From Escherichia coli (lineage in GTDB: Bacteria; Pseudomonadota; Gammaproteobacteria; Enterobacterales; Enterobacteriaceae): a DNA stretch of 64,000 nucleotides. Positions 2,221-25,618 of this stretch are shown piece by piece; position 1 is the stretch's first letter; each line of letters opens with the position of its first letter. The notes under the pieces were generated by a model. The model was not told the origin of the DNA. It did no database searches and saw nothing but the letters and a program-made list of their open reading frames with translations. Location of the stretch: assembly GCF_003790525.1 (NCBI RefSeq), contig NZ_CP033635.1. One strand, written 5' to 3'. Both the position numbers and the translations under genes were made by a program.

Positions 2221-3758
2221 TGGCAATCACTAAATCAACTCCGGCACCATTAACCGGTGGGACGTTATGGTGCGTTACTATTGCATTGTCATTAGCGACG
2301 TTTATGCAAATGTTGGATTCCACTATTTCTAACGTCGCAATACCGACAATATCTGGCTTTCTGGGAGCATCAACAGACGAAGGCACCTGGGTTATCACTT
2401 CGTTTGGCGTAGCAAATGCCATTGCGATCCCTGTTACCGGCAGGCTGGCACAAAGAATAGGCGAATTAAGGTTATTTTTACTTTCAGTCACTTTTTTTTC
2501 GCTGTCTTCCTTAATGTGTAGTTTATCGACCAATCTTGATGTGCTGATATTTTTTAGAGTCGTTCAGGGATTAATGGCGGGGCCGTTAATTCCACTGTCA
2601 CAGAGTTTATTATTAAGGAATTATCCACCAGAAAAAAGAACATTTGCTCTGGCATTATGGTCTATGACCGTGATTATCGCGCCGATATGTGGGCCGATAT
2701 TGGGCGGTTATATTTGTGATAACTTTAGCTGGGGTTGGATATTTTTAATCAATGTCCCTATGGGGATTATCGTCCTGACATTATGCTTAACCTTACTTAA
2801 AGGAAGAGAAACCGAGACTTCACCGGTCAAAATGAATCTACCAGGACTGACCCTGTTAGTGCTCGGTGTTGGTGGCTTGCAAATTATGCTTGATAAAGGG
2901 CGCGATCTGGATTGGTTCAACTCGAGTACAATAATAATACTAACAGTAGTATCAGTTATTTCTCTGATCTCTTTAGTCATTTGGGAGTCGACCTCAGAGA
3001 ACCCGATTCTTGATCTCAGTTTGTTTAAGTCCCGTAATTTCACCATTGGTATTGTGAGTATCACATGCGCGTATTTATTTTACTCTGGAGCGATCGTCCT
3101 TATGCCGCAGTTACTCCAGGAAACGATGGGGTATAATGCGATATGGGCCGGGCTTGCTTATGCGCCCATCGGTATCATGCCGCTATTAATATCACCTTTG
3201 ATAGGACGTTATGGCAACAAAATAGATATGCGGTTGTTGGTGACATTTAGTTTTTTGATGTATGCGGTTTGCTATTACTGGCGTTCTGTGACATTTATGC
3301 CAACGATTGATTTTACAGGCATCATTTTGCCACAGTTTTTTCAGGGATTCGCCGTTGCCTGTTTCTTTTTACCCTTAACAACGATTTCGTTTTCAGGCTT
3401 GCCAGATAATAAATTTGCCAATGCCTCGAGTATGAGTAATTTTTTTCGCACCTTGTCAGGATCAGTTGGTACGTCGTTGACAATGACGCTGTGGGGACGC
3501 CGAGAATCATTACACCATAGTCAGTTGACAGCAACCATCGATCAATTTAACCCCGTGTTTAATTCATCGTCACAAATTATGGATAAATACTATGGTTCGC
3601 TTTCAGGAGTTCTTAATGAAATTAATAATGAAATAACCCAGCAGTCACTTTCTATTTCTGCAAATGAGATTTTCCGTATGGCGGCTATTGCTTTTATCTT
3701 ACTTACGGTTTTGGTTTGGTTTGCGAAACCGCCGTTTACAGCGAAAGGCGTTGGGTGA
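2220..3758 (+). CDS. emrY: MFS multidrug efflux pump EmrY (EmrB paralog)
   Basis: 512-aa polytopic membrane protein, 14-TM DHA2-type; ATGG overlap with emrK. Confidence 0.9.
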   Translation: MAITKSTPAPLTGGTLWCVTIALSLATFMQMLDSTISNVAIPTISGFLGASTDEGTWVITSFGVANAIAIPVTGRLAQRIGELRLFLLSVTFFSLSSLMCSLSTNLDVLIFFRVVQGLMAGPLIPLSQSLLLRNYPPEKRTFALALWSMTVIIAPICGPILGGYICDNFSWGWIFLINVPMGIIVLTLCLTLLKGRETETSPVKMNLPGLTLLVLGVGGLQIMLDKGRDLDWFNSSTIIILTVVSVISLISLVIWESTSENPILDLSLFKSRNFTIGIVSITCAYLFYSGAIVLMPQLLQETMGYNAIWAGLAYAPIGIMPLLISPLIGRYGNKIDMRLLVTFSFLMYAVCYYWRSVTFMPTIDFTGIILPQFFQGFAVACFFLPLTTISFSGLPDNKFANASSMSNFFRTLSGSVGTSLTMTLWGRRESLHHSQLTATIDQFNPVFNSSSQIMDKYYGSLSGVLNEINNEITQQSLSISANEIFRMAAIAFILLTVLVWFAKPPFTAKGVG

Positions 3759-3862
3759 TGGTAAAAGCAAGGGGTTATAGCGGGTAAGACCGGGGATCTT
3801 AAGTCTGCGCCATCGGCAGCATCGCTCACCCAGGGAAAGGATGGCGATGCTGCGTTGAAACG

Positions 3863-5194
3863 TTATGAACGGCCTTTTGCCAGATATTGCTCCATCTCTT
3901 CTTCCGGCACCATTCCACCTCCCGTCGCCCACACCAGATGAGTGGCATTATGCAGTTGTTCTGCGCTGAAACCGTGCATCTGTTGGTAACTTACTGATGC
4001 GCACACGCGCTGAGGCCCAGCCATACCCGCCAGTGCCGAAGGTTCAAGACGAATACCTTCTTCCTGCGCCAGCCAGCCAAGCATGTCATACATGGTTTGA
4101 TCGCTAAGGGTATAGAAGCCATCCAGCAGACGCTCCATCGCCCGCCCGACAAAGCCTGATGCGCGACCAACTGCAAGGCCATCCGCTGCGGTAAGGTTGT
4201 CGATACCAATATCCTGAACAGAAATCTGATCGTGTAATCCTGTATGGACGCCTAACAACATACAAGGGGAGTGCGTTGGTTCGGCAAAAAAGCAGTGAAC
4301 ATGATCGCCAAACGCCAGTTTAAGTCCGAATGCGACGCCACCAGGACCACCACCAACACCACACGGCAGATAGACAAACAGAGGGTTATCAGCATCGACG
4401 ATACGACCTTGCTGGGCAAATTGCGCTTTAAGACGCTGGCCAGCGACGGAATACCCAAGGAACAACGTGCGGGAATTCTCGTCATCAATAAAGAAACAGT
4501 TCGGGTCAGACTGCGCTGCTTTACGTCCTTCCTCGACAGCAACACCATAATCTTGCTCATATTCCACGACTGTAACGCCATGGCTGCGCAGTTTCGCTTT
4601 TTTCCACGTCCGGGCATCAGCAGACATATGCACTGTCACCTTAAAGCCAATGCGGGCGCTCATTATGCCGATTGATAACCCCAGATTTCCGGTTGAGCCC
4701 ACAGCAATGCTGTATTGACTAAAGAACTGTTTAAACTCCGGGGAAAGCAGTTTGCTGTAGTCATCTTCAAGCGTCAGCAACCCCGCTTCCAGAGCCAGTT
4801 TTTCTGCATGTGCCAGGACTTCATAAATCCCGCCGCGTGCTTTTATGGAGCCGGAAATGGGCAAATGGCTATCTTTTTTCAGTAGCAGTTGCCCGCTGAT
4901 CGGTTGTTGATATTCCTTTTCCAGCCGTTTTTGCATAGCCGGAATGGCAACCAGTTCTGATTCAATAATCCCCCCAGTAGCAGCAGTTTCAGGAAATGCT
5001 TTTGCCAGATAGGGTGCAAAACGGGATAAGCGCGCATGGGCGTCCTGAACATCCTGTTCGGTCAGGCCAACATAAGGTAAACCTTCAGCCAATGAGGTCG
5101 TGCCAGGATTAAACCAGGTGGTTTCTTGAAGAGCAACCAGATCCTCTACCAACGGATACTGGGCGATGAGCGAATTCATTTTAGCGTTTTCCAT
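3863..5194 (-). CDS. dsdA: D-serine dehydratase (PLP-dependent)
   Basis: 443-aa [34 protein letters not shown]..., PLP lysine motif region SGSIKARGG. Confidence 0.95.
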
Positions 5195-5211
5195 AGTACG
5201 TCTCTTTGCGC

Positions 5212-6549
5212 TTAGATGATAAATGACAGCAGGAATGTGCCCGCCAGAGCGACGACCGAAGCGATAAATGTCGCGGTCGTATAGTATTTAAATGTTTCAT
5301 TGAGCGTAGCGCCGCAATATTGCTTCACCAGCCAGAAAAGCGAGTCCGTAACGATCGTGCAGCCAATCGCACCTGAACCGATAGCAATCGCAATAATTTC
5401 CGGGCTGATGTCGGGATACAGCGGCAGCATGGGTGCAACAATTGCCGTTGCCCCCATCATTGCCACCGTAGCGGAGCCCACTGCAGCATGCAGAATAAGT
5501 GCCACCAACCAGGCCAGAAGAATCGGGTGCATATGCATATTGGAGAGAATAACTGCCAGCGTATCAGCGAGACTGCTGCTTTTTAAAATGGCGTTGAATG
5601 CGCCTCCGGCCCCGATAATCAGCAAAATATTAGCAATAGAACCGAAGCCATTTTCCGTATGTGTGAGCATTGTCCCCATGCTCATATGCTGGCGTATACC
5701 CAACACATAATAGGCGACAAACACGGCGATAAACATGGCAGTAATAGGGTTGCCAATAAACTCAAGCAAGGTATACAAACCACTCTCACGCGCCATATTC
5801 AATTCGGCAATCGTTTTAACCAACATCAGCGCAATGGGTAGCAGTATGGTGAATAACGTTGCGCCTAATGACGGTAGTGTTTTTTCATCGCGAACTTTGA
5901 GATCGGCAAACTCTGTGGGTACAGGTTTAAAGGGCAGTCGTTGACCCAGAAATTTAAGGAAAAGTGGGCCACCGATCAGTGATGCCATCAGCCCAACCAG
6001 CAAACCGTAGACGATCACCGAACCGATATCTGCGCCCAGCTTATTGGCAACATATAAAGCAGCCGGATGTGGGGGAACCACGCAGTGCACTGCCATCAAT
6101 GCGGTACATAGCGGAATGGCCAGCTTTAACAATGAGGTATTGGTTTTTTTGGCAATTGAAAAAGCCAGAGGAATCAATAGCACGACGCCCACTTCAACAA
6201 ATAGCGTGATGCCGCAAATCAGGCCAACCAGCACCATAATGACATCAGCTGAAAGCCAGCGACAGCGTTGAAGTGTCAGACCAATTCTTTCTGCGGCCCC
6301 GGATACTTCCATCATTTTTCCCAGTATCGTGCCCAGGCCGATAACCGCAGCAAGGAACCCCAGCGTTCCGCCAATTCCACTTTCAATAGCATTTACCATA
6401 TCCAGTGGTCCCATACCCATCATCGTTCCCACGAAGAAGCTGGCCAGCAACAGCGCCAGAAACGGGTGGAATTTGAACTTCACGATGGTCAGTACAATTA
6501 ACACGATGCTGATAAGCAGCGTGCTCACAACCCAGATTTGAGAGTGCAT
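5212..6549 (-). CDS. dsdX: D-serine/gluconate permease (GntP family)
   Basis: 445-aa highly hydrophobic ORF directly upstream of dsdA on the same strand. Confidence 0.9.
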
Positions 6550-8108: not shown

Positions 8109-8678
8109 TTATATCTTCTTTATATCTAACACATCACCCTCCCATACTCGTTTAAATCTTGCTGCATTACTGGCTGTATATAATACCGTATGATGTATAT
8201 TTCTGTGCCCTAAATAATCTTGTATTAGTCTGGTGTCTAACCCTTGATTAGCTAAAGCATACCCACAACCATGCCTAAGCATGTGAGGATGAATATTAAT
8301 ATTCATATTGTGACTATATTTCTTACACATCTTATACACATATTGTCTCGAGATTTTATTTCCTTGACAAGAAAGAAATAAAGAGTCTTCAAAAGGTTTT
8401 TTTACTATGTTATCACGTAGTGCTAGCCATTTTTTTAATAACAGAACAGTTTCTTTTTGCAGGGGATGTACTGTGGATAATCCATTTTTTAAACGCTTGA
8501 TATATATTGCTGACTCTGAAAAGTCAATGTCGCTAATCTTTAGTGCAATAAGCTCGCTTACCCTAAGACCATGTACATATGCCATTTGTAACATGGCTTT
8601 ATCTCTAATTTCATTTTTTGAACCGTTGATGGCTTCAAAAAATAACAACCATTCACTATGAGTAATAAATTTGCGCAT
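8109..8678 (-). CDS. FimB/FimE-family tyrosine site-specific recombinase (ipbA-like)
   Basis: 189-aa ORF; C-terminal HPHMLRHGCGYALANQGLDTRLIQDYLGHRNIHHTVLYT matches the FimB/FimE catalytic region. Confidence 0.8.
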   Translation of the reverse strand: MRKFITHSEWLLFFEAINGSKNEIRDKAMLQMAYVHGLRVSELIALKISDIDFSESAIYIKRLKNGLSTVHPLQKETVLLLKKWLALRDNIVKKPFEDSLFLSCQGNKISRQYVYKMCKKYSHNMNINIHPHMLRHGCGYALANQGLDTRLIQDYLGHRNIHHTVLYTASNAARFKRVWEGDVLDIKKI

Positions 8679-9426
8679 AATATTATCGGTTATACTAATT
8701 AAGTTAAAAAATAAACTATAAATACCAGAGCCTGGTATTATTGCTTGTTTTTTATAAGCAAATAATGAGCTGGGGTTTAAATTATGCCACTAAATGGATA
8801 TTCATCAATACCCCGCCAGAGAGATAGTTGCCCAGCGGGCATAGATCATTATTAGTCAACCAATGAGCATAAATAAGCACAAGGAGGTGTGTATTGCGAA
8901 TAGTAATTCAATGACATGCTGGTGGTTTTTTTGTGGTGAAAATATTTGTACCTTTTTGTTTACGGATGAAAAATAAACAGTCATATTATTTTGGTTAATT
9001 GTTGTGTTAGTTTTAACACTCGGTGATGTTTTTTGTTATAGTGCATTAATTTTTAAATAAAAAAATTCATACATTCATGGATGTAATATATACAAGATAC
9101 AATGTTAATTTTAGATAAAATATTAATTGCATTGGATACTTTTTAAATATGCCGATGTTGAGCTTAATTTTATGAGGGAATACTATTTCGGGTTGTAGGA
9201 CTTTTTTATAATCATCTTATAGGGCTCTTTATATTTACAGGAGGGTTTTGAACGATAGTTACATAACGAAGGTTGTTTATATGCGTTTACAAGCGATTAA
9301 TTAGATTAGGTGAATTTTAATAAATTAATCTATAATCATACAGCAACTATATGAATTATATTATTGACTAAATGTAATTCTTTCATCATAGTTGACATGG
9401 TTATTTTATATAAATAGAGGTGATTT

Positions 9427-10056
9427 ATGCAAAACAGAAAATTTTTAACGCATCATGAAATTAATTTACTACTTCAATCTGTAAGACAAAAGAGTTGCTC
9501 TTCACGCGATGTTTGCATGATTTTATTGGCTTATTTTCATGGTCTGCGTGTTAGTGAGCTCTTATCTCTGCAGTTGTCGGATTTAGAACTAACTACAGAA
9601 AAAATATATATTCAACGGATAAAAAATGGATTCAGTACAGTCCATCCACTTCAAAAGGAAGAGGTGATTGCAATAACAAACTGGCTGAATGAAAGGAATT
9701 CATTAAATGTTAAACATTTCAATGATAACCCGTGGTTATTTGTTTCCCGAACAGGAAAACCATTATCGAGACAACGATTTTATAACATAGTTTCTGCTGC
9801 GGGTAAAAATGCAGGTTTAAATATTAAAGTTCATCCACATATGTTACGCCATGCATGTGGTTATTCACTAGCAGATAATGGTGTGGATACCCGTCTTATT
9901 CAGGACTATCTCGGGCATCGTAATATCAGGCATACGGTAATTTATACTGCTTCTAATTCAATGAGATTTGAAAAAATGTGGGGGAGAGGTGACGCAAAAA
10001 AGCAACATTTTGACCCAAAATGTAAACCCAATCTTTGTTTAGAAATTCTCGTATAG
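9427..10056 (+). CDS. FimB/FimE-family tyrosine site-specific recombinase (ipuA-like)
   Basis: 209-aa ORF; HPHMLRHACGYSLADNGVDTRLIQDYLGHRNIRHTVIYT catalytic motif; paralog of 8109-8678, divergently oriented. Confidence 0.8.
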   Translation: MQNRKFLTHHEINLLLQSVRQKSCSSRDVCMILLAYFHGLRVSELLSLQLSDLELTTEKIYIQRIKNGFSTVHPLQKEEVIAITNWLNERNSLNVKHFNDNPWLFVSRTGKPLSRQRFYNIVSAAGKNAGLNIKVHPHMLRHACGYSLADNGVDTRLIQDYLGHRNIRHTVIYTASNSMRFEKMWGRGDAKKQHFDPKCKPNLCLEILV

Positions 10057-10285
10057 AAAAACATTTTTTTCTATAAAAAACATTAAATTTACTGATTTAG
10101 ATCAATGTGTGACGTCAATCTACACATAAAGAGGTAGGTTTGTCTTCTTTTTAATCTTTGGCGTATAAAGCCAAAATGTAAATAATAATCAAAATTATAT
10201 TCTGAATTAAAATAAATACGCAGGTTTTTTACCTGCGTTTTGTGCTATTTATAGTTAATTAAATTGATGTTGTCAAAATGGGTCA
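10011..10285. promoter_or_regulatory. Candidate invertible promoter switch (ipuS-like)
   Basis: 7-bp inverted repeat TGACCCA (10011-10017) / TGGGTCA (10279-10285), each followed by TGTAAACC; segment lies between recombinase and regulator and contains an intrinsic-terminator hairpin. Confidence 0.4.
10219..10241 (+). terminator. Hairpin plus T-run inside the candidate switch
   Basis: CGCAGGT-TTTTT-ACCTGCG followed by TTTT; A-rich upstream, so potentially bidirectional. Confidence 0.45.
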
Positions 10286-10373
10286 TTTTGTAAACCTGTG
10301 CCTCAAGGTTTGTCTCCCCCCGGTGTGCAAAGCAAAAGGAAATTGGGAAAGGGGATAACAGGAAATTGATTGC

Positions 10374-10994
10374 ATGGTTTTGATTACGACGACAAAAAAT
10401 ATTTTTATAATTCAAGCAATTAAGAGTATGCGTTGGCGGGGTTTTTCGTACGTGAAAGTCATCGCTGTGGACGACTATTCTTCTCTGATTCGTGATTTTG
10501 GCACATCTTGCTTTCGGGATGAGCAATCGTTGTTGTTACCTGTATTCCCTGATAATGATTCTACTACCTGTATACGCTCACTGTATTTCATTCACCAATG
10601 GCTAAAAAGCCAGCCTGTCAATATTCCGTGCCTGGCATGGGGGGATAATGGTGTAGTTAGTAATAAAGGCATACCTTCCATACCGTGGAAATTAACAGCA
10701 GAGCAATTTTGTTTCTATATAGATAAATTTATCAATGGCTGGAGGTGCAAAAAAAATATTCGCGCGAGTCATAAAGTTTCTTTTTTAGAACGACAATTAT
10801 CCCCGAGGGAGAAAAGTATCTTTATATATACCAAGGAAGGAAAAGATATTGCATGGATCTCTAACACCTTGGGTATATCCAGTAAGACTGTGTGGACGCA
10901 TCGTCGTAGAGCTATGGATAAACTCGGGGTAAAACGTTTACATCAATTTATAAATATTCCGCGTTCCCTTATTAGTGAAAATATTCAATTATAA
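10374..10994 (+). CDS. LuxR/GerE-type transcriptional regulator (ipuR-like)
   Basis: 206-aa ORF; C-terminal HTH LSPREKSIFIYTKEGKDIAWISNTLGISSKTVWTHRRRAMDKLGV; immediately upstream of the autotransporter. Confidence 0.7.
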   Translation: MVLITTTKNIFIIQAIKSMRWRGFSYVKVIAVDDYSSLIRDFGTSCFRDEQSLLLPVFPDNDSTTCIRSLYFIHQWLKSQPVNIPCLAWGDNGVVSNKGIPSIPWKLTAEQFCFYIDKFINGWRCKKNIRASHKVSFLERQLSPREKSIFIYTKEGKDIAWISNTLGISSKTVWTHRRRAMDKLGVKRLHQFINIPRSLISENIQL

Positions 10995-11018
10995 TGTACG
11001 TTCAAGAGTATTAGTGTT

Positions 11019-14000
11019 ATGAATAAGATATATAAAGTCATTTGGAACCATACAACCCAAAAATGGGATGTTGTTTCAGAATTGACGAGTTGTAGAAAAA
11101 AATGTAAATCAACTCGCTTAGGAATTGCTTTATCAGCAATGGTTCTGGGGGGCGCTATTGCAATTAATTGCAATAACGCAATGGCAGATGTCATATTGTC
11201 ACCAGACTGGCGTCCGGGTACGAATAACTCGGGTGTTGGGGCTGCAACAGTAAGTGGTAAAACCGAATACATCACTGGTCCAAATGTCGTCCAGTCTGGT
11301 GGGTCAGGTCTTATCTGGATGACTGTAGAACAGGCAATTTTAAATGGTTACACCACTGGAGATAATTTATCCGGATTGATTTACGTCAATACCGGAGAAA
11401 AAACAAAAACCATTACAGTGAAGGATGAGGTTACTGGCGCTTATCAAACACTTCAAGTGTTTGATACTGACTCTTTCTCACAACGCGATGCGGGGACTGG
11501 AGGAAATGAAACCATTCCTGGTTTTAGTGGCACTGCAGATTTTTTCAATGCGACACGTTTTGTAACAGCCAATAATGGCGGTACAGCTATTTTGGATGTG
11601 GGTTCACCAGCAATCGGTAATTTTTTTAAAAATACACAGCTTGCTGTAGCTGATGGAGAAGGTTCCTCTGTTGTATGGAACTCGGTCAATGATTTTTATT
11701 TTCAGCCTGGTGCAACCATGCAGGGGGGCGGCGTTACTCAAAAAATCATTGACTCAATGAAATATGCTGGAACAATTACTGATTGGGCGGGAAAAGTACA
11801 CCATATTAACTCTCTTGATGATTTAAAGCAATATAATCAATATTTGATAAAGTCACTAGAGGACAAAACGCTTTCTTATAAGCAGTATGATGCTGAATTT
11901 AATAAGGCCCTTATTGTCACCAAGCATAATTACAATGTGGATATGACCGCTGGGGGACGTATAGACTCAACTCCTTACAAAGAAAATGTAGGGCTGCTTG
12001 CTGTTCTCCATGCAACCAATAACGCACGAGCAATATTAGGTAAAACGGGTAAATTAACTGGAGTTCTTCCTGCCTATGGGAATGGAGGAGGGATCGTTGC
12101 AACTAATGGTGGGACCGGTGTTAATGAAGGGGTCATTGATGCCATTGGTACTGAAATGATTGCCTATCAAGACAGTACCATTGTTAACGATGGTACACTT
12201 TTTGTTTGGGATAATAATGATAAATATGCTCTCCAGGCAGAGGGGATGGTTGCCGGTAGTAATGGTTCTTCAGCCATTAATAATGGTGTTATTAATATTC
12301 GCCCATTTAAAAATGCTTTCGCTCCAGAGGGGATTAACACCGCAATTGTTGTTAGTAATGGGGGCATGGCAACAAATAAAGGCACAATAAATATTACTGC
12401 CGATGCATCAACTAATGATAATAATGGCAAAACACGAGGTGTAAATGTTGGAGCTGGAGGCTCTTTTATTAACTCGGCCTTCGGGAGCATCAATGTAGGT
12501 ATTGCGGAGGATAAAACTGCGACTCATTCGGCTGTGGGTTCTGTTGCGATTGAAGTACAAAATGGTGCAAACAAAGTCGTTAATGAAGGTACTATTTTTT
12601 TGGGCAGGGGGGCTCAGGGGAACTACGGAATCCTGGCAAAGGATGCCGGGAGTGTTGATGTGGTAAATAAAGGGACTATCACTATTGACGGTTATGACAG
12701 TGATGCACCTGCACTGAATGTTGGCATGCTGGCAAATAATAGCTCCGGGATGAAAAACTCCGGGATTATCAATGTTAATGGTCTGAACAGTACCGGGCTA
12801 CAGGTAATCAATGCAGGGCAATTAAATTCTGACGGTACGATAAATGTTGGCGGCGAGGGTATCAGTAGTGGTTTCCGTAACTATGGTGCCTGGGTGGAAG
12901 GTGCCAGAAGCAATGTTAATGTATCCGGAAAAATCAATCTTTCCGGTACTGGTGCTGTGGGGGTTTTTGCCAAAGATGGCGGCAGTCTTACCTTGTCAGG
13001 CAATGGTGCAGTGCTATTTGGCAGCAGCGATCAGATAGGCTTTTATGTCTATGGAAAGGACTCTGCCATTCATAATACCGGAAGCGGTGTTATGGATGTG
13101 TCCACTGAAAACTCAACATTATTCCGTATTGCCAGCGGTGCGACATTCCAGGGAACTGCAGATGCTTCTTCTGCACTTACGGCGTCTGGTAAGAACTCTT
13201 ATGCACTTATTGCCACGGGGAAATCGGATGGCGGTGTGGCCTCGACAGTAACGTCTGGAGGAATGACCATCAACCTGACGGGGGAGGGGGCTACAGCGAC
13301 TTTAATTGAAGGGGGAGCGCAGGGCACAATTGAAAGTAATGCCATTATCAATATGGATAATGCCAGTGCAATAGCCGGTATTGCGGATGGCAATGGCTAT
13401 GATATTTCCGGCAAACTCATTAATCCGAAGGACAAGACCACACTATTAACGGCGGGGGCTCAGTTAAGTTCCACCCAGGATAAAGTGACCGGGTATATCG
13501 CCCGTAATGGGGCCACTCTAAATAATACCGGTAATATCATCTTTACTGGAAAGAATACAGTGGGCGTCCGGGTTGAGGAGGGTGCTGTTGGTACCAACAG
13601 CGGAAATATTACAGTTCAGGATGGTGGTGTGGGACTAATTGCTAATGCCACACAAGATGTTACAACGATTAATAACTCGGGAAATCTCGTTCTCAAGGGG
13701 GGAGATAATGCTAACCGTACAACGGGTATAAAAGCATCTGGTACAACAACAACGGTTAATATGACCGCGGGTACTATATCTTTGCAGGGACAGGGGGCGA
13801 TTGGCGTTGAGGCCAGCAATAAAGGGACTGTTAACCTTGATGGCTCGGCAGTACCGAACTTTGCTTCTGACGGCTCTGGTATTACCGATCAGATTGCTTT
13901 TCGTATTATCGGAGATGGTGCAACCATTAAGACGAATATTGCACCGGGAACTCTGCTGGATGCCAGTGGGGAACGTTCTGTACTTTTCCGTATTGAAGAT

Positions 14001-17000
14001 GGGGCAAAACAGGCCGGCTCTTTGCTGATGAAAACCTCCGGGACAGGCAGCCGTGGTATCTGGGCCACAGGGAAAGGGAGCAATGTCCTGGCTGATGCTG
14101 GCAGTGATTTCCAGATCCTGGGCGCTCAGGCTCAGGGATTATATGTAACTGGTGGTGCGACAGCGACGCTGAAACAGGGGGCATCAGTTAACCTTGTAGG
14201 GGATGGCGCTGTTGTCGCGGAAGTTGACGGAAATGAATACGCTCTGGATGGCAGTATTACACAAACGAATACTGGCTCGGTTATTACCAATGAGGCAGAT
14301 ATCTCTTCGCCGCTGAATAATGCCAAGGGCTTTATTACGCGTAATCAGGGACTGTTGATTAACAGCGGCAACATTGATTTCACTACCGGTACAGATAATA
14401 TCGGCGTCTGGGTTGATAATGGTCGTTTTGAAAATACAGGAAGCCGTATAGCGGTCAATGGCGTTGCATTATTTGTTGAAGGTGAACACGCTCAGATTAC
14501 CAGCACGGGAGGGGATATCGTCGCTGTGGATGGTGAGGCTGCCATTAAGCTGGGGGCGGGCGCGTCACTGAACCTGGCAGGGAGTGGCCTGGGAACGATC
14601 GAAGGTCAGAAAAATGCGCATGGCATCCTGCTGGATACAGGGGCTGTGGGGCTGGTTATTGATGGTGCGAAAATCAATGTTAATGCTGCAGGTGCGGTCG
14701 GTCACGGGATTGAGAACCGTGCAGAAATTGAAGGCATTCAGTTAACCAATACGACTGAAATTAATGTGGCTGATGGCATTGGTGTGCGAACTTCTGCTTC
14801 TCTGGCCAAGACCAACAGCGGCACTATTAATGTAGACGGCAGTGGAATTGCACTGGCGTTCCAGAAAGCTGACGGAAGTGAAACCGATAATAACCTGGAT
14901 ATGTCTGACTCCGGCGGATTAGTCATTAATCTGAAAGGCACGGGCGGCACGGGTATTTTCGCCAACACTAAAGATGGTGCTGTCGTGAAGAGTGGTGCAA
15001 GTGTCAATGTTACACAGGCCGATGGCGGTTCCGCTCTGGTGGTTAACAATGCGGCCAGTGAAGTGGTTCAGAGCGGTAATCTCATCTCTGCTTCTCTGAG
15101 TCATGCCGTAGTGGATGCTTCAAAAGCACAGTCCTTTACCAATAAAGGTCAGATTAAAGCTGCGTCCGCCACCGGGACTGCAATGGCGTTTGATGACGCC
15201 GTGAATACCACCGTACTGAATGACAGCGGTGCTGAAATTCAGGGGGTTGTGGCTCTGAACGGCGGTGATAACACATTCACCAATAAAGGCAGTATTACCG
15301 GAACCGTCAGTGCAAAAGAGGGTAACAATACATTTTTATTTGATGATGGCAGCATACTGACAGGAGAAGTGGCTGCAGGAAATGGCAATAACAATGTAAC
15401 GCTCAATGGTAAGGCTCATGTTGATAAGGTTACTGCCGGTACCGGGAAGAACACCTTCACCATTAAAGGCGAAGGGGCAACCTGGAACCTGCTGGATGGC
15501 GGGCAGGGAGATTCTGATTCCCTGATTTTTGATAACGCCATTCATACGCTGGATTCTGCTGTAAAACTACGGAATTTTGAACATGTCGGGCTGAAGAACA
15601 GTTCGCTTGTCACTCTGAAGGAAGCTCTTGTGCTGACCGATGGGGGGACCGGCCCGGGTTCCGTCGATATTGAATCGGGCAGCGAACTGGCCATTATTCC
15701 CGCAGTTGCAGGCAACTTTACCTTTGATCCACTGTTAACAGGCAAAGGAACACTGTCTGCCCGTCTTGATGCCGACACATCTGCTTTTGAATTCAGCCAT
15801 AACGTCGGGGATCAATTTGCCGGAACTCTGAAGCTGGGTACCAGTAGCTTTGCTCTGGAAGGGCTGAATACGAGCGGGTTAACCCATGCAATGCTGATGT
15901 CTGAAACCGGGAATATCACAACGGTTGGCTCCGGTGTTCAGCAGATTGGCGGTCTTGGGTTCAATGGCGGAACGCTGATTTTTGGTTCCGTTATGCCGGG
16001 CGATACCATTGCCAGCAACAGTATTGAAACCTCTGCTGCAGGTACGCTGGATATCCGGGGGAAAGGCACAATTCAGGTCACCATGCCAGATGAAGTGATT
16101 AATGATATTCCGGCTGTTGATACCCGTAAGAATTTGCTGGAGCAGGATGATGCGCAGACCCTGGTCACACTGGTGAATGCAGCGGGTACCGTCACCGGTA
16201 CTGGCGGGCAACTGCAACTGGTGGATGAAAACGGGCAGGCTATTTCTCACAGTCAGACGTTTGATGTCACTCAGGGCGGTGAAGTTGTAGCTCAGGGAAA
16301 TTATGACTATAAGCTGCTGGGAAGCTCCGACGGTGTTAAAGGTGACGGACTGTACATAGGCTATGGGCTGAAGTCGCTGGATTTACAGGGAACCGGTGAT
16401 AAAGCGCTGGTGCTGACACCGAGAGCGAATGCCCAGGGACTGCAGACAGATCTTGGTGCACAGTTAACGGGGGCAGGGGATCTGGCCATCGAAGCTGCGG
16501 GGCAGGTTGTCACACTGTCTAACGGCGGTAATAACTACACCGGGGATACGCTGGTGCGCAGCGGCACACTGCAGATGGCAAATGATAATGTGCTTGGCGC
16601 TACAGGTAGCCTGAACGTTGCCAGCAATGCCGTCTTCAGAACAGACGGATACAGCCAGACGGTGGGTGCACTGCAGACAGAAACGGGAGCGCACATTCAG
16701 CTTGATAGCGGTAGTGTACTCACGGTCAGCGGCACGCAGCGTCAGCCGGGCGATGATAATGGTGGCATCATTGAAAACAATGTGCTGACCGGAGACGGTA
16801 CGCTGGCTGTCACGGGCAGCAATCTGACGGTACATGGCACCAATATCGGGTTCACCGGTAATGTCAGCCTTACCCGGGGTTCGCTGGTTGAAATGAACGG
16901 CGCACAGGGGCTGGGAAGCCAGGGCTCCATCAGCTTTGAAAGCCTTAATGATCGCCTGGCGATTGATATCGCCGACGGTAGCGGAGTCAGCAGTAACCTG

Positions 17001-18932
17001 AGTAAATCGCTTTCCGGAAAAGGTTCAGTGGGCATACTGAACACCACTGATCTGACACTTTCCGGAGATAACCGTAATTTCAGCGGTGAATTCCGTGTGC
17101 AGAAAGATGCTGCTCTGCGGGCTTCAGATGAAAAACACCTGGGCACCGGGCTGATTGACAGTGATGGTGTCACCTGGCTTACCGCCAGTGGAAACTGGTT
17201 ACTGAAGAATGATATTACTGGCTCCGGCGCTCTGGTGAAACAGGGGGCGGGTAATCTGATCATTAATCATGAGCTGACTTATACCGGTGATACCACGGTT
17301 GAGAATGGCGTTCTGATTGTCGGTGATGATTCAGTCACCCGTGCCGCTGGCGCGACGTTGTCAGGATCCAAAAACATTCATGTTCTTAATGGCGGCACAC
17401 TGAGTGGGCTGGGGACCGTTTCGGGTCAGGTTAATAACCAGGGAACACTGGCATCACTGAATGCTCTCTCAGGTTATGAAACGGCAGAGGCGGGCAATTT
17501 TACCGTTGGCTCACTGACCAATACCGGCGTCATTCGTCTGGCCGGTGGTAAGACAGGAAATACCCTGACCGTAAATGGCGATTACACTGGTGGCGGTACG
17601 TTAATTATCAATACCGTGCTGGGGGATGATACTTCTGCCACTGACAAACTGATTGTCACGGGTAACACCTCCGGTGATACCGGCGTGGTGGTGAATAATG
17701 TCCGGGGCCAGGGGGCTCAGACCGCTGACGGCATTGAGATTGTGCATGTCGGTGGGCAGTCTGACGGTAACTTCAGACTGCAGAACCGTGCGGTGGCAGG
17801 GGCATGGGAATATTTCCTGCATAAAGGTAATGCGGGTGGTACTGACGGTAACTGGTATCTGCGTTCTGAATTGCCGCCAGAACCACAACCGCAGCCGCAG
17901 CCACAACCGCAGCCACAGCCACACCCCACGCCGGATAAACCTGTACAGAAGGTCTATCGTCCGGAAGCGGGCTCTTATATTGCGAACATAGCGGCAGCCA
18001 ACACGCTGTTCAACATCAGAATGCACGATCGTGAGGGGGAAACTTACTATACCGATGTGTTTACTGGTGAGAAGAAAGCAACAAGTATGTGGATGCGTCA
18101 TATCGGCGGTCATAATCGCTGGAAGGACAGCAGTTCACAGCTGAATACGCAAAGTAACCGTTATGTTGTGCAACTGGGTGGCAGCATTGCGCAATGGACT
18201 GACGGTCAGGACCGTCTGCAACTGGGGATTATGGCCGGTTATGGAAATGAGAAGAGTTCCACGACATCCTCGCTTTCGGGATATAAATCTAAAGGTGCGA
18301 TCAATGGATACAGCACCGGTTTATACGGAACGTGGCAGCAGAATGACGGTAATGACAACGGGGCTTATGTCGATACCTGGATCCAGTACGGATGGTTTAA
18401 TAATACCGTTAATGGTGAAAAACTGGCTGCGGAGTCCTGGAAATCCCGTGGATTTACCGGTTCAGTGGAAGCGGGTTATACCTTTAAAGCCGGCGAATTT
18501 ACCGGTAGCCAGGGTAGTCACTATGACTGGTATATTCAGCCGCAGTCCCAGATCACGTGGATGAATGTAAGAGCCAGTGAGCATACGGAGAAGAATGGCA
18601 CGAAAGTTCAGCTCAGCGGAGACGGTAATATCCAGAGTCGTCTGGGCGTCAGAACTTACCTGAAAGGTAAGAGTGCGTCTGATGATAATAAGGCGCATCA
18701 GTTCGAGCCATTTGTGGAAGTTAACTGGATCCATAATACACGGAGCTGGGGTGTCAAAATGGATAATACGGCACTCAGTCAGGACGGAGCTACAAATATT
18801 GCTGAAGTCAAAACGGGTGTTCAGGGTAAATTGTCAGATAACCTGAATGTCTGGGGCAATGTTGGTGTTCAGGCTGGCGATAAAGGGTACAGTGATGCCC
18901 AGGCAATGCTGGGTATTAAATATATATTCTAA
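11019..18932 (+). CDS. Type Va autotransporter adhesin, AIDA-I/UpaE-like, 2637 aa
   Basis: Extended signal peptide motif MNKIYKVIWNHTTQKWDVVSEL; long Gly/Asn/Thr-rich beta-helical passenger; (PQ)n linker; C-terminal beta-barrel ending ...GIKYIF. Confidence 0.9.
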   Translation: MNKIYKVIWNHTTQKWDVVSELTSCRKKCKSTRLGIALSAMVLGGAIAINCNNAMADVILSPDWRPGTNNSGVGAATVSGKTEYITGPNVVQSGGSGLIWMTVEQAILNGYTTGDNLSGLIYVNTGEKTKTITVKDEVTGAYQTLQVFDTDSFSQRDAGTGGNETIPGFSGTADFFNATRFVTANNGGTAILDVGSPAIGNFFKNTQLAVADGEGSSVVWNSVNDFYFQPGATMQGGGVTQKIIDSMKYAGTITDWAGKVHHINSLDDLKQYNQYLIKSLEDKTLSYKQYDAEFNKALIVTKHNYNVDMTAGGRIDSTPYKENVGLLAVLHATNNARAILGKTGKLTGVLPAYGNGGGIVATNGGTGVNEGVIDAIGTEMIAYQDSTIVNDGTLFVWDNNDKYALQAEGMVAGSNGSSAINNGVINIRPFKNAFAPEGINTAIVVSNGGMATNKGTINITADASTNDNNGKTRGVNVGAGGSFINSAFGSINVGIAEDKTATHSAVGSVAIEVQNGANKVVNEGTIFLGRGAQGNYGILAKDAGSVDVVNKGTITIDGYDSDAPALNVGMLANNSSGMKNSGIINVNGLNSTGLQVINAGQLNSDGTINVGGEGISSGFRNYGAWVEGARSNVNVSGKINLSGTGAVGVFAKDGGSLTLSGNGAVLFGSSDQIGFYVYGKDSAIHNTGSGVMDVSTENSTLFRIASGATFQGTADASSALTASGKNSYALIATGKSDGGVASTVTSGGMTINLTGEGATATLIEGGAQGTIESNAIINMDNASAIAGIADGNGYDISGKLINPKDKTTLLTAGAQLSSTQDKVTGYIARNGATLNNTGNIIFTGKNTVGVRVEEGAVGTNSGNITVQDGGVGLIANATQDVTTINNSGNLVLKGGDNANRTTGIKASGTTTTVNMTAGTISLQGQGAIGVEASNKGTVNLDGSAVPNFASDGSGITDQIAFRIIGDGATIKTNIAPGTLLDASGERSVLFRIEDGAKQAGSLLMKTSGTGSRGIWATGKGSNVLADAGSDFQILGAQAQGLYVTGGATATLKQGASVNLVGDGAVVAEVDGNEYALDGSITQTNTGSVITNEADISSPLNNAKGFITRNQGLLINSGNIDFTTGTDNIGVWVDNGRFENTGSRIAVNGVALFVEGEHAQITSTGGDIVAVDGEAAIKLGAGASLNLAGSGLGTIEGQKNAHGILLDTGAVGLVIDGAKINVNAAGAVGHGIENRAEIEGIQLTNTTEINVADGIGVRTSASLAKTNSGTINVDGSGIALAFQKADGSETDNNLDMSDSGGLVINLKGTGGTGIFANTKDGAVVKSGASVNVTQADGGSALVVNNAASEVVQSGNLISASLSHAVVDASKAQSFTNKGQIKAASATGTAMAFDDAVNTTVLNDSGAEIQGVVALNGGDNTFTNKGSITGTVSAKEGNNTFLFDDGSILTGEVAAGNGNNNVTLNGKAHVDKVTAGTGKNTFTIKGEGATWNLLDGGQGDSDSLIFDNAIHTLDSAVKLRNFEHVGLKNSSLVTLKEALVLTDGGTGPGSVDIESGSELAIIPAVAGNFTFDPLLTGKGTLSARLDADTSAFEFSHNVGDQFAGTLKLGTSSFALEGLNTSGLTHAMLMSETGNITTVGSGVQQIGGLGFNGGTLIFGSVMPGDTIASNSIETSAAGTLDIRGKGTIQVTMPDEVINDIPAVDTRKNLLEQDDAQTLVTLVNAAGTVTGTGGQLQLVDENGQAISHSQTFDVTQGGEVVAQGNYDYKLLGSSDGVKGDGLYIGYGLKSLDLQGTGDKALVLTPRANAQGLQTDLGAQLTGAGDLAIEAAGQVVTLSNGGNNYTGDTLVRSGTLQMANDNVLGATGSLNVASNAVFRTDGYSQTVGALQTETGAHIQLDSGSVLTVSGTQRQPGDDNGGIIENNVLTGDGTLAVTGSNLTVHGTNIGFTGNVSLTRGSLVEMNGAQGLGSQGSISFESLNDRLAIDIADGSGVSSNLSKSLSGKGSVGILNTTDLTLSGDNRNFSGEFRVQKDAALRASDEKHLGTGLIDSDGVTWLTASGNWLLKNDITGSGALVKQGAGNLIINHELTYTGDTTVENGVLIVGDDSVTRAAGATLSGSKNIHVLNGGTLSGLGTVSGQVNNQGTLASLNALSGYETAEAGNFTVGSLTNTGVIRLAGGKTGNTLTVNGDYTGGGTLIINTVLGDDTSATDKLIVTGNTSGDTGVVVNNVRGQGAQTADGIEIVHVGGQSDGNFRLQNRAVAGAWEYFLHKGNAGGTDGNWYLRSELPPEPQPQPQPQPQPQPHPTPDKPVQKVYRPEAGSYIANIAAANTLFNIRMHDREGETYYTDVFTGEKKATSMWMRHIGGHNRWKDSSSQLNTQSNRYVVQLGGSIAQWTDGQDRLQLGIMAGYGNEKSSTTSSLSGYKSKGAINGYSTGLYGTWQQNDGNDNGAYVDTWIQYGWFNNTVNGEKLAAESWKSRGFTGSVEAGYTFKAGEFTGSQGSHYDWYIQPQSQITWMNVRASEHTEKNGTKVQLSGDGNIQSRLGVRTYLKGKSASDDNKAHQFEPFVEVNWIHNTRSWGVKMDNTALSQDGATNIAEVKTGVQGKLSDNLNVWGNVGVQAGDKGYSDAQAMLGIKYIF
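17874..17933 (+). repeat. Pro-Gln dipeptide repeat linker (CCGCAG/CCACAA units)
   Basis: PPEPQPQPQPQPQPQPHPTP in the translation; tandem 6-nt units in the DNA. Confidence 0.85.
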
Positions 18933-18939: not shown

Positions 18940-18965
18940 GTGGCAGGAGGGGACCTCCTGCCACC
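18940..18965 (+). terminator. Strong hairpin 3' of the autotransporter
   Basis: TGGCAGGAGG-GGA-CCTCCTGCCA perfect 10-bp stem just after the stop; no clear T-run, so the terminator call is tentative. Confidence 0.35.
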
Positions 18966-18979
18966 TCAGGGTTGTCATA

Positions 18980-19510
18980 ATGAGTTCTGTAATGAAATTT
19001 TCTGTTGTTAATGCAGTAGTGCTGCTGTTGCTGATTGTACTTACTGGTGTTTTTTATATGAAAAAGTCAAAAGAAATTGCAGTTGTTAATATCGATGCTA
19101 TTTATAATCAGTCTGCCGCCGGAGACATGGCCAGAAAACATCTGAATGAGGTTAAGAGTATTCTTGAAAAAGGATATGAGGATGCGCAAAAAGTATTCGC
19201 AGATAACGCGAATAAAGAGGCGCTGCTTCTTGATGCCAGACAAAAACTGGAACGACAATATGTTATTGAGGAAAATAGCGCAAAAATGGTGTTATCCCGT
19301 GCGATAGATAATGCTATAGGCACATGGAGAAAAGACAATCCTAAAAATATTGCCGTATTGTCTTCAGGTGTTGTGCTTGCGCATAACGAGTCAGCTGATA
19401 TCACCAAAGAAGTCATGACTCTGGTTGAAAAAGAAAATCTGGTTTTTAATAAATTACCCAAAGTGGAAGTGCACAATAAGAATGAAGAGAAACCAGAACA
19501 AAGTAAGTAA
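18980..19510 (+). CDS. Skp/OmpH-like periplasmic chaperone paralog
   Basis: 176-aa ORF with signal/TM segment; IAVVNIDAIYNQSAAG and NIAVLSSGVVLAHNESADITKEVMTLVEK resemble Skp IAIVNMGSLFQQVAQ and [29 protein letters not shown] from memory. Confidence 0.55.
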   Translation: MSSVMKFSVVNAVVLLLLIVLTGVFYMKKSKEIAVVNIDAIYNQSAAGDMARKHLNEVKSILEKGYEDAQKVFADNANKEALLLDARQKLERQYVIEENSAKMVLSRAIDNAIGTWRKDNPKNIAVLSSGVVLAHNESADITKEVMTLVEKENLVFNKLPKVEVHNKNEEKPEQSK

Positions 19511-19947: not shown

Positions 19948-19966
19948 TGGTGTCCCTGCAGAAATC
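19948..19966. repeat. Degenerate copy of argW 3' end (putative distal att of the satellite)
   Basis: TGGTGTCCCTGCAGAAATC versus the argW 3' end TGGTGTCCCCTGCAGGAATC at 32636-32655 (17 of 20); about 12.7 kb from the tRNA. Confidence 0.5.
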
Positions 19967-20183
19967 ATCTTAATTATTATTATGTTGATTTATATGTAGT
20001 TTATTTTTGATTTTTTGTTTTTGTACCCGTTTTGTGCCCGTTTTATTCGATTCCCAATTTAAACTTCGATTCTAGAAAGGTGAGTAGGGGAGGTTATCAT
20101 TTCATGTATCATTATTGTAGACACAGAATAATTACTCGCCTATCCTCACTGTAGACACACAATAGATACAGGAGTTAACCCAC

Positions 20184-20432
20184 ATGCGCACACAGGTTGT
20201 ATTGCAAAAATGGGGTAATAGCATTGCCCTTCGACTAACGGGAAACCTTAAAACCGTTCCGGGGTTTTCAGTGGGTGATATCGTCAACGTTGAAATTAGT
20301 GAAAAGGGGCTTTTTGTAGAAAAGCCTGCACGCCGTCGCCTGAGTGAAGCCGAATTACTCGCCGGGATAACGCCAGTTACAGCGCACGCGGACGAAATTG
20401 CCACCCCATTCAATGAGGAGGTTGATTACTGA
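20184..20432 (+). CDS. MazE/PemI-family antitoxin (AbrB/SpoVT fold)
   Basis: 82-aa ORF MRTQVVLQKWGNSIALRL...; stop overlaps the toxin start. Confidence 0.75.
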   Translation: MRTQVVLQKWGNSIALRLTGNLKTVPGFSVGDIVNVEISEKGLFVEKPARRRLSEAELLAGITPVTAHADEIATPFNEEVDY

Positions 20433-20776
20433 TGTTTGTACCTAAGCGTGGTGATATTTGCTGGCTGGATTTTGAGCCGCAGAAAGGAAAAGAGAGCGGA
20501 AAGTATCGCCCGGCACTCATACTATCCCATGAGCAATATAACCGACTCACCGGGCTTGTCATATGCTGCCCCATAAGTACGAGCATACGAAATGCTCCCA
20601 CAGAAGTTCCGGTAACAAATCTGGACGCCCCCAGCGTGGTAGCAACCACACTCATTCAAACCCTTGACTGGCGTCAGCGGAAAGCGCGCTTAATCACAGA
20701 GGCAGAAGATGGGGTATTTAATGATGTGCTTGAAAGAGTCATTACCCTGATTGGTGGAGAGCATCTGCTTAAGTAA
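20432..20776 (+). CDS. MazF/PemK-family toxin (endoribonuclease)
   Basis: 114-aa ORF MFVPKRGDICWLDFEPQKGKESGKYRPALILS..., PemK/MazF-like N-terminus; coupled to the upstream antitoxin. Confidence 0.75.
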   Translation: MFVPKRGDICWLDFEPQKGKESGKYRPALILSHEQYNRLTGLVICCPISTSIRNAPTEVPVTNLDAPSVVATTLIQTLDWRQRKARLITEAEDGVFNDVLERVITLIGGEHLLK

Positions 20777-20819
20777 AAGGAGGGCTGAGAAGCCCTCAAC
20801 GTTACCAGAAATTTCCTTG

Positions 20820-22801: not shown

Positions 22802-22965
22802 TGTTTGCTCCTGTAATACATTTTTTACTTACGCCCATTTTTTCCATATTGCGTAATACATTCCAGCCGATTTTGTTCTCGTAATACGCTCACAATACTG
22901 TTGTATTACGCTTTCTTATATCGCGGGTGTTAAATCCCGGTATAAGCAATCAGGGAGGCAACACG

Positions 22966-23199: not shown

Positions 23200-23249
23200 T
23201 ACAGAAATAACGTAGCCGGTTACACTCGCTGGCTGCGTTATACAAATCA

Positions 23250-25616: not shown

Positions 25617-25618
25617 GT

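Follow-up and report, generated by a model that had tools for sequence, protein, structure and literature searches.

An OFF-oriented ipuS locus in Escherichia coli: sequence analysis of a probable promoter-inversion switch and its Fim-type recombinases

Genes of the Locus

The window analysed here is a stretch of 64,000 nucleotides from Escherichia coli, and by its sequence the part from 8109 to 18932 is the E. coli ipuB / ipuA / ipuS / ipuR / upaE locus. Its genes, a candidate further gene and the spacer between the two recombinase genes are as follows.

8109-8678, minus strand: ipuB, tyrosine-type DNA invertase, 189 aa (ORF)
8679-9426, no strand: ipuB-ipuA divergent intergenic region, 748 bp, AT-rich (28% GC)
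9427-10056, plus strand: ipuA, tyrosine-type DNA invertase, full-length 209-aa (OFF-state) form (ORF)
10374-10994, plus strand: ipuR, LuxR/GerE-type HTH regulator, 206 aa (ORF, Pfam, NCBIfam)
11019-18932, plus strand: upaE, AIDA-I-type autotransporter adhesin, intact, 2637 aa (NCBIfam, RefSeq name)
18980-19510, plus strand: candidate third gene, OmpH/Skp-family protein, 176 aa, N-terminal hydrophobic helix

Sequence comparison shows 100% identity to strains such as SMS-3-5 over 3.1 kb of the locus, and 98.7% identity with 0 indels to CFT073, the strain in which ipuS was defined experimentally (mBio 2018, PMC6083910; mSphere 2019, PMC6458436). The window allele thus belongs to another lineage than that of CFT073, while the gene order dsdC, ipuB, ipuA, ipuS, ipuR, upaE is the same in both (Battaglioli et al., mBio 2018; Russell et al., mSphere 2019). 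RefSeq annotation of identical or near-identical DNA uses the names ipuA, ipuB and phase-variable UpaE. Together with the CFT073 match, these names bear out the sequence-only reading of this DNA, which had likened it to the ipuS - ipuR - upaE phase-variable locus of uropathogenic E. coli; its name for the partner recombinase, ipbA, was wrong, the annotated gene being ipuB and ipbA a separate Fim-type recombinase in the literature listing. The switch was therefore correctly identified as a published system that is already known, and it is no discovery. Collinearity with SMS-3-5 was considered for the whole window and rejected, as the tRNA-Arg gene is offset by 12.7 kb because an island has been inserted; this P4-like island lies between the ipuS locus and tRNA-Arg in the window strain, unlike the description of CFT073.

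On their sequences, IpuA and IpuB fall among the Fim-type (FimB/FimE family) single-domain tyrosine DNA invertases of ~200 aa. IpuB is identical to the CFT073 protein (accession WP_001224626.1); its best NCBIfam match is a tyrosine-type DNA invertase at 204.9 bits, slightly below the cut-off of 221, and its catalytic residues R39, H132, R135, and Y167 are all there. IpuA differs from its CFT073 counterpart by substitutions at residues 20 and 187 only, scores 250.5 bits against NF007370 (cut-off 221) and 238.8 bits against a second invertase subfamily (cut-off 222), and has R41, H138, R141, and Y173 in place. The two proteins share 52% identity and are encoded divergently. The RHRY catalytic residues are intact in both, and all precede the point at which IpuA is truncated by inversion. 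The ORFs, the NCBIfam matches and these residues agree with the proposal, made from the letters alone, of two divergent FimB/FimE-like recombinases. The 748-bp region between the genes presumably holds the promoters of both.

IpuR matches the Pfam GerE family at residues 141-193 (E = 7e-12), and NCBIfam matches cover the HTH part only. Residues 1-135 have no Pfam or NCBIfam match, and no autoinducer-binding domain was detected there, which goes modestly beyond the published papers. Judged by these matches, IpuR is a LuxR/GerE-family HTH protein for which an autoinducer receptor domain is not demonstrable; it differs from CFT073 IpuR by four substitutions. UpaE carries an NCBIfam autotransporter beta-barrel domain (E = 7e-119), is named 'phase-variable autotransporter adhesin UpaE' in RefSeq, and has a computed mass of 270 kDa against a published 271 kDa. 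Its 2637-codon ORF is intact here, whereas upaE is marked as frameshifted in the CFT073 RefSeq record. Surface display and adhesion of UpaE have been published for CFT073.

Recombination Sites and the Invertible Segment

The elements of the switch itself lie between the 3' part of ipuA and ipuR.

10005-10028, no strand: distal recombination site, in ipuA, core TGACCCA at 10011-10017
10018-10278, no strand: ipuS invertible segment, 261 bp between the repeats, 26.5% GC, OFF orientation
10038-10077, minus strand: candidate ipuS promoter, directed toward ipuA in the OFF orientation
10218-10245, plus strand: GC-rich hairpin ACGCAGGT-TTTTT-ACCTGCGT (10218-10238), then TTTTGTG
10255-10262, no strand: sole PacI site TTAATTAA, asymmetric within ipuS
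10268-10296, no strand: proximal recombination site, ipuR side, core TGGGTCA at 10279-10285

The sequence-only reading had placed the ends of the switch at the 7-bp inverted repeat TGACCCA / TGGGTCA, the first copy of which sits within the 3' end of ipuA (gene end 10056). Its coordinates were exact, and this is the published pair, at which two laboratories have sequenced the breakpoints (PMC6083910; PMC6458436). That a reading of raw sequence correctly located the 7-bp breakpoints of a genuine invertible element provides a calibration point. The distal core is flanked by inverted arms (CATTTTG ACC CAAAATG) in a sequence equal to that of CFT073, and the proximal site reads CAAAATG GGT CATTTTG. 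The alignment to the CFT073 ipuS region that had been proposed as a check contains no indels and five SNPs, and the latter leave the repeats, flanks, hairpin stem, and candidate promoter hexamers untouched. The inter-repeat length is 261 bp both here and in CFT073 (NC_004431.1), so the 260 bp given for ipuS in the papers is a matter of counting; the ipuA-ipuR spacer (10057-10373) is 317 bp, equal to the published 317 bp. The PacI site is the basis of the published orientation assay for ipuS (PMC6083910; PMC6458436).

When the segment is inverted in silico, IpuA goes from 209 to 198 aa, with ...HFDPK... becoming ...HFDPF*, a loss of 11 residues and the change K198F. The legend to Fig. 1C of PMC6083910 gives the same 11-residue truncation with a K-to-F end. 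The paper is internally inconsistent on this residue, as its running text has K-L where the legend has K to F.

A 7-bp inverted repeat alone is not significantly above chance in such an AT-rich stretch. Between 9900 and 10400 there are 18 pairs of perfect 7-bp inverted repeats spaced 150-400 bp apart, compared with 7.8 +/- 3.7 in shuffles, and the repeat by itself was therefore rejected as statistical support. The TGACCCA / TGGGTCA pair is singled out by the uniqueness of the 17-nt site around it, by conservation in Salmonella, and by an inversion product that equals the published one. The 17-nt site CAWWWTGACCCAWWWTG occurs only twice in the 64 kb when up to two mismatches are allowed, and both occurrences are the ipuS sites. 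In the Salmonella diarizonae orthologue, the distal site is identical at 24/24 positions and the proximal site at 29/29, while the interior of the switch is only 53% identical; no perfectly conserved run in this comparison is longer than these 24- and 29-nt sites. Such identity between genera argues for continued selection, and the perfect retention of both sites despite a diverged interior is again modestly beyond the papers. A perfect 9-bp repeat that overlaps the 7-bp pair (CATTTTGAC / GTCAAAATG, at 10006-10014 and 10272-10280) was also considered as the crossover and rejected because inversion there would not shorten IpuA by 11 residues to an end in F, as published. Its bases are the arms of the recombination sites.

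The abundance of 7-bp inverted repeats in the local AT-rich DNA raises the question of whether the pair is a chance match and the functional repeats are located somewhere else, such as the 748-bp region between ipuB and ipuA, where the sequence-only reading had allowed that they might be found. Longer imperfect repeats do occur in that region, but these are imperfect AT-rich matches only; a motif scan of 8679-9426 found no recombination-site motif, and they were rejected. The breakpoints sequenced by two groups in effect already refute this explanation, and the predicted change in IpuA and the conservation of the sites in Salmonella amid diverged DNA also speak against it. Moreover, when each recombinase was over-expressed in CFT073, the inversions detected genome-wide were those of fimS, hyxS, and ipuS, and no others (PMC6458436). 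The probability that the true repeats lie elsewhere is close to negligible.

Promoter and Hairpin

The published mechanism of ipuS is an invertible promoter (PMC6083910). By 5' RACE, a transcription start was located inside ipuS in locked-ON cells only; it falls inside the coding sequence of full-length ipuA and is preceded by promoter hexamers that each match at 4 of 6 positions (PMC6083910). In the window, only two minus-strand 4/6 + 4/6 matches would start transcription within the ipuA-coding part of ipuS. The first combines a -35 of TTTATA (10077-10072), 16 nt, and a -10 of TATACG (10055-10050), with a start near 10043; the second combines TAGAAA, 17 nt, and GAGAAT (10050-10045), with a start near 10038. 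We infer the hexamers from these matches, and a stricter consensus promoter scan does not list a 4/6 + 4/6 candidate. After in-silico inversion, the candidate start would be at about 10253-10258, directed toward ipuR.

The segment also contains the hairpin that the sequence-only reading had noticed, together with the suggestion that it blocks or permits read-through depending on orientation. The hairpin stood up to analysis: it folds at -14.8 kcal/mol (z about -4.4) on the plus strand and probably serves ipuA, judging from its sequence, as an intrinsic terminator when the switch is OFF. Orientation-dependent termination as the mechanism did not. According to that model, the switch mainly shows or hides the terminator at 10218-10238, and ipuA transcripts read through to ipuR in one orientation. 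It was one of the two a priori possibilities named by the authors (PMC6083910), the hairpin is real and strong, and its U-tract is better on the plus strand (TTTTGTG vs ATTTATTTTA), so that read-through from ipuA in the ON state could be somewhat leakier. However, both strands of the hairpin look like a terminator, with 8 pairs of which 5 are G-C, and the other strand still folds at -13.0 kcal/mol (z about -4.3). Inversion would move the hairpin to about 10058-10078, upstream of where the promoter region comes to lie, and in the Salmonella orthologue, which retains the sites, no terminator-like hairpin is present. Given also that the RACE product came from locked-ON cells alone, with its start inside ipuS, the terminator model is highly improbable.

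Taken together, these observations leave little doubt that we are dealing with the ipuS promoter-inversion switch and its cognate Fim-type recombinases, IpuB and IpuA, in the OFF orientation. The recombinases would exchange strands at the TGACCCA / TGGGTCA cores and thereby flip the intervening 261 bp, which would carry a weak sigma-70-type promoter near the ipuA end. In the OFF state, this promoter would face back into ipuA, IpuA would be made at its full length of 209 aa, and the ipuA transcript would probably stop at the hairpin, leaving ipuR and upaE silent. In the ON state, the promoter would lie some 120 nt upstream of ipuR, from where it would drive ipuR and upaE, and ipuA would be shortened to 198 codons (...HFDPF) with its inversion ability retained. 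Inversion, breakpoints, acting recombinases, the ON-only start, and induction of ipuR and upaE have all been published for the 98.7%-identical CFT073 allele. There, inversion of ipuS is catalysed by IpuA, IpuB, FimE, FimX, and weakly by FimB (PMC6083910; PMC6458436), and over-expression of IpuB raises ipuR about 1,600-fold and upaE about 33-fold (PMC6458436). The biological importance of the switch has likewise been published already: the CFT073 ON state shows reduced motility, increased adherence to kidney cells, and an advantage in kidney colonisation, and the ipuS recombinases act on fimS too.

Orientation Across Genomes

The OFF orientation seen in the window is the rule among sequenced strains. 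Among complete E. coli genomes, ipuS is OFF in 235 of 236 and ON in none, and all 23 metagenome contigs with ipuS are OFF; natural ON-state copies are thus absent from the 236 genomes and 23 contigs. The same test found fimS flipped in 246 of ~4710 genomes (5.2%), and this difference is a further point modestly beyond the papers. A site scan of one genome per species, in either orientation, gave no match, the locus being absent from the representative genomes.

These counts could indicate a fossil switch, with ipuS effectively locked OFF in the window strain or generally outside CFT073. Some loci have indeed decayed: in SCU-124, ipuA, ipuB, and upaE are frameshifted, and in TUM1586 an IS200C element lies inside ipuS. 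An assembly, however, shows just the orientation that predominates in a culture and hides minority orientations. The window has intact copies of both recombinase genes, the two sites, ipuR, and upaE; its IpuB and its sites match exactly those of CFT073, a strain that switches in culture (PMC6083910; PMC6458436). IpuA is reported to be the most efficient ON-to-OFF enzyme (PMC6458436), so a population dominated by OFF cells is to be expected of a working switch. That the sites are perfectly conserved from one genus to the other further argues against disuse, and a fossil switch appears very unlikely. Sequence data do not document inversion of the window allele or strain, as none of the assemblies is ON; that the window strain itself switches is inferred.

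Related Switches

Similarities to the type 1 fimbrial switch, fimS, are evident. Like ipuS, fimS is a promoter segment (~300 bp) inverted by Fim-type recombinases encoded next to it (FimB/FimE), and the recombinases of the two systems cross-act (PMC6083910; PMC6458436). The fimS IRR has AACATTT, the outer flank of the distal core, and GTCAAAATGG, found in the proximal site, in common with ipuS. The core repeat of fimS is 9 bp (TTGGGGCCA) as opposed to 7 bp, no recombinase gene overlaps with fimS, and what fimS controls is a fimbrial operon instead of a regulator and an autotransporter. In hyxS (FimX; LuxR-type HyxR), as described in the literature, a Fim-type recombinase gene adjoins the invertible promoter of a LuxR-type regulator on a genomic island; the descriptions differ from ipuS in the 16-bp repeats, the single cognate recombinase, and the absence of a downstream autotransporter.

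A Self-Regulating Unit

A more speculative proposal, which we regard as possible but rather unlikely, is that ipuS is a self-regulating, strongly OFF-biased switch as opposed to a simple ON/OFF promoter, and perhaps serves a three-gene unit with a Skp-like chaperone. In the OFF state, the ipuS promoter would fire antisense into the 3' end of ipuA, and every inversion would both swap the C-terminal tail of IpuA and exchange the arms of the two sites. The OFF sites are near-palindromes and the ON sites are hybrids, with the flanks of the ON distal site being those of the fimS IRR. The antisense promoter, tail swap, and arm exchange could together set the directional bias and explain the absence of ON assemblies.

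The third gene of such a unit would be the 176-aa ORF, which has homologues annotated as 'OmpH family outer membrane protein' with PF03938. Its own Pfam OmpH match is weak (E = 0.011), and a sequence search of solved structures returned nothing meaningful. A structural model has a Skp-like topology, and the fold match of highest probability is Skp 1u2m_B (0.63, TMt 0.63; E = 1.1), while hhalign to an approximate sequence of E. coli Skp aligned 20 columns, covering the first strand only. The gene may belong to the ipuR-upaE operon, and a unit of three genes, one of them encoding a Skp-like chaperone dedicated to the 270-kDa adhesin, may be under the control of the cassette common with Salmonella diarizonae. 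The published pUpaE clone stops with the upaE coding sequence and nevertheless displays UpaE in K-12 (PMC6083910), so any contribution of such a chaperone would be one of degree. An OmpH-like gene follows the autotransporter gene in Salmonella and Escherichia sp. too, and its presence after upaE in every place where the adhesin gene is found is the last point that goes modestly beyond the papers.

Identity of the Locus

The sequence-only reading recognized a known, experimentally characterized system; its breakpoints were right, and one gene name and a mechanistic detail were wrong. The small additions made here are an all-OFF census, a footprint in Salmonella, and a linked OmpH-like gene. The ORFs and their NCBIfam and Pfam matches agree with the description of two divergent FimB/FimE-like recombinases upstream of a LuxR-type regulator and an autotransporter:

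8109-8678, minus strand: ipuB, small tyrosine recombinase, 189 aa
9427-10056, plus strand: ipuA, small tyrosine recombinase, 209 aa
10374-10994, plus strand, downstream of the recombinase genes: ipuR, 206 aa, C-terminal GerE/LuxR helix-turn-helix
11019-18932, plus strand, downstream of the recombinase genes: upaE, AIDA-type autotransporter, 2637 aa, 270 kDa
18980-19510, plus strand: OmpH-like ORF, 176 aa, starting 47 nt past the upaE stop

The divergently encoded IpuB and IpuA are 52% identical to one another, retain the R-H-R-Y catalytic residues, and have 'tyrosine-type DNA invertase' subfamilies as best NCBIfam matches, IpuA above the curated cut-offs and IpuB slightly under. The name ipbA, first given to the partner recombinase, belongs to the gene also named fimX at the hyxS locus; the second recombinase is ipuB in the RefSeq annotation. 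In the literature, ipbA is listed as a distinct Fim-type recombinase. The GerE helix-turn-helix at residues 141-193 is the sole detectable domain of IpuR, its N-terminal ~135 residues having no match in Pfam or NCBIfam; IpuR is termed a LuxR-type regulator, and such proteins are described with autoinducer-binding and DNA-binding domains (PMC6083910).

A 3.1-kb query over the recombinase and switch interval is present in 239 of 5426 complete E. coli genomes, chromosomal in every case, with 100% identity to many complete chromosomes (e.g., SMS-3-5). On these, RefSeq names ipuB, ipuA, a helix-turn-helix regulator, and a 'phase-variable autotransporter adhesin UpaE'. CFT073, the strain where the ipuS switch was defined, aligns with 98.7% identity in a 621-bp stretch around the switch, with zero indels and the repeats unchanged. 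The RefSeq names, this alignment, and the published breakpoints all bear out the identification as the ipuS locus. Five positions differ across the 275 bp spanned by the repeats (10110, 10112, 10158, 10186, and 10251), all outside the repeats, flanks, hairpin stem, and candidate promoter. IpuB is identical in CFT073; IpuA carries two substitutions (residues 20 and 187) and IpuR four.

In the CFT073 reference (NC_004431.1), upaE (3720-5621 of the extracted locus) is a frameshifted pseudogene according to RefSeq, while that of the window is intact. A 271-kDa UpaE was detected from CFT073 in published work, and the frameshift likely stems from an error made when the old reference was sequenced. 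In E. coli SCU-124 the locus has decayed, with frameshifts in ipuA, ipuB, and upaE and a shortened ipuR; the two 7-bp repeats nevertheless survive intact, together with their flanks.

Recombination Sites

The 7-bp inverted repeat lies where the sequence-only reading placed it (TGACCCA, 10011-10017; TGGGTCA, 10279-10285). The region is 26-28% GC and holds 18 perfect 7-bp inverted pairs of comparable spacing, against ~8 in shuffles; because such pairs are abundant in AT-rich sequence, this one alone proves nothing. It is singled out by four independent observations, namely the literature, site architecture, likeness to fimS (the type 1 fimbrial promoter switch), and cross-genus conservation.

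Inversion of ipuS to ON is reported to remove 11 residues from IpuA and to put F in place of K at the new C-terminus (figure legend, PMC6083910). In-silico inversion of 10018-10278 replaces the terminal KKQHFDPKCKPNLCLEILV with KKQHFDPF, each followed by the stop, shortening IpuA from 209 to 198 residues with K198F. The paper is internally inconsistent here, the Results text giving a 'K-L substitution' and the Fig. 1C legend 'K-to-F'; the change seen in the sequence is K to F. The 317-bp ipuA-ipuR spacer agrees with the published description, as does the single, asymmetrically placed PacI site (10255), which also agrees with the published assay. The same 7-nt breakpoints were sequenced again by a second laboratory (PMC6458436). 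The repeats are 261 bp apart in the window and, identically, in the CFT073 reference; the published figure of 260 is therefore a counting difference.

Both ends are 17-nt near-palindromes (left CATTTTG-ACC-CAAAATG, right CAAAATG-GGT-CATTTTG), and no further copy of the motif occurs within the 64-kb window with two mismatches permitted. In a strain that has fimS as well as ipuS, the right repeat of fimS is GTCAAAATGGCCCCAAATGTT; it has GTCAAAATGG in common with the proximal (ipuR-side) ipuS site and AACATTT, abutting the core, with the distal (ipuA-side) site. This likeness fits the published cross-activity of Fim recombinases.

The complete module also exists outside Escherichia. In Salmonella enterica subsp. 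diarizonae (GCA_017944985.1, 1-10337 of the locus), an ipuA-like gene for a Fim-type recombinase and an ipuS-like element precede an ipuR-like gene for a GerE regulator, an upaE-like gene for an autotransporter of 2632 aa, and an OmpH-like gene, with the same 7-bp repeats spaced 262 bp apart. The longest perfectly conserved runs in the alignment with the window are the two sites (24/24 at 10005-10028; 29/29 at 10268-10296), and identity falls to 53% over the ipuS interior and 47% over 10091-10267. An AT-only 15-bp perfect palindrome (1037-1069 of the locus) takes the place of the GC-rich hairpin of E. coli. In Escherichia sp. GCA_004212315.1 (700-11200 of the locus), the same autotransporter and OmpH-like pair lies behind PapB- and FaeA-family regulator genes with no recombinase switch upstream, and downstream of it is a short GerE gene. 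From this it seems that differing regulatory modules have been coupled to the adhesin cassette.

Orientation of the Switch

Full-length IpuA defines the OFF state (PMC6083910), and the window, which encodes full-length IpuA, is OFF. The native sequence and an in-silico flipped version were used as queries against all complete E. coli genomes. The OFF arrangement was found end to end in 235 of 236 genomes, and the flipped query found the ON arrangement in 0 of 236. The sole exception, TUM1586, carries IS200C inside ipuS and is still OFF. Metagenome contigs matching a degenerate pattern for either junction (n = 23) were likewise all OFF. With the same procedure, fimS was in one orientation in 4460 genomes and flipped in 246 (5.2%), which shows that inverted switches are picked up by the method. 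In sequenced cultures, as represented by assemblies that reveal the majority orientation only, ipuS is markedly more OFF-biased than fimS. The bias is in line with the published finding that, of the enzymes, IpuA turns the switch from ON to OFF most efficiently (PMC6458436).

The TUM1586 insertion (~720-1425 of the extracted locus; window ~10217), directly 5' of the hairpin, is the only interrupted switch in the 236 genomes.

Promoter and Hairpin

The hairpin reported inside the element is real and stable (10218-10238; -14.8 kcal/mol, z = -4.4), and its position in the OFF state is a good one for terminating ipuA. The sequence-only reading went further, proposing a terminator that blocks or permits read-through depending on orientation. 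The evidence does not support this: the hairpin scores as a terminator in both strands, it shifts in the ON state to ~10058-10078, upstream of the relocated promoter, and the Salmonella element lacks a terminator-like hairpin. Read-through was also tested by the original authors, who found an ON-specific internal start instead (PMC6083910). Because the U-tract is poorer in the reverse orientation, the hairpin may have a minor auxiliary effect.

The published promoter is the favored explanation. 5' RACE gave a product from locked-ON cells only, with the start mapped inside ipuS, in the part coding for ipuA when OFF, and with -35 and -10 elements each matching at 4/6 positions (PMC6083910). Just two minus-strand candidates have a start within 10018-10056:

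Start near 10043, minus strand: candidate ipuS promoter 1 (TTTATA, 16 nt, TATACG)
Start near 10038, minus strand: candidate ipuS promoter 2 (TAGAAA, 17 nt, GAGAAT)

The candidate -10 GAGAAT is kept in Salmonella. Inversion moves the candidate starts to ~10253-10258, which places them about 120 nt ahead of ipuR. IpuB over-expression raised ipuR ~1,600-fold and upaE ~33-fold, leaving dsdC and dsdX unaffected (PMC6458436).

The Linked OmpH-Like Gene

The published ipuR-upaE operon is described as two genes only. In 252 E. coli genomes, S. diarizonae, and an Escherichia sp., the autotransporter gene is followed by the gene for the 176-aa protein, which is preceded here by a GC-rich hairpin without a T-run (18940-18970). 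Its product has a hydrophobic N-terminal helix, and its close homologues carry the name 'OmpH family outer membrane protein'. The Pfam OmpH match is weak (E = 0.011); an AlphaFold model (pLDDT 74.8) has a Skp-like topology, its top-probability fold match being Skp (1u2m), which is not significant.

Other Features of the Window

A 12.7-kb P4-like satellite or island (~19948-32636), missing in SMS-3-5, is inserted at tRNA-Arg(CCT) (32636-32710, minus strand) and carries:

20184-20776: MazE/MazF-like pair
20820-22232: P2-type major-head-like protein
24612-25652: second integrase
25619-28312: P4 alpha-type primase
29507-29594: C4 antisense RNA
29620-29701: isrK
31195-32499: integrase

Between mlaA and fadL, a 415-aa ORF (34946-36193, minus strand), 'hypothetical' in SMS-3-5, had zero matches in NCBIfam and PADLOC. 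A Septu-type defence pair (49893-51894, minus strand) adjoins smrB; for the genes at the equivalent position, the SMS-3-5 annotation goes no further than 'AAA family ATPase' and 'hypothetical protein':

49893-50552, minus strand: PtuB HNH nuclease (PADLOC E = 5e-95)
50536-51894, minus strand: PtuA ATPase (PADLOC E = 2e-168)
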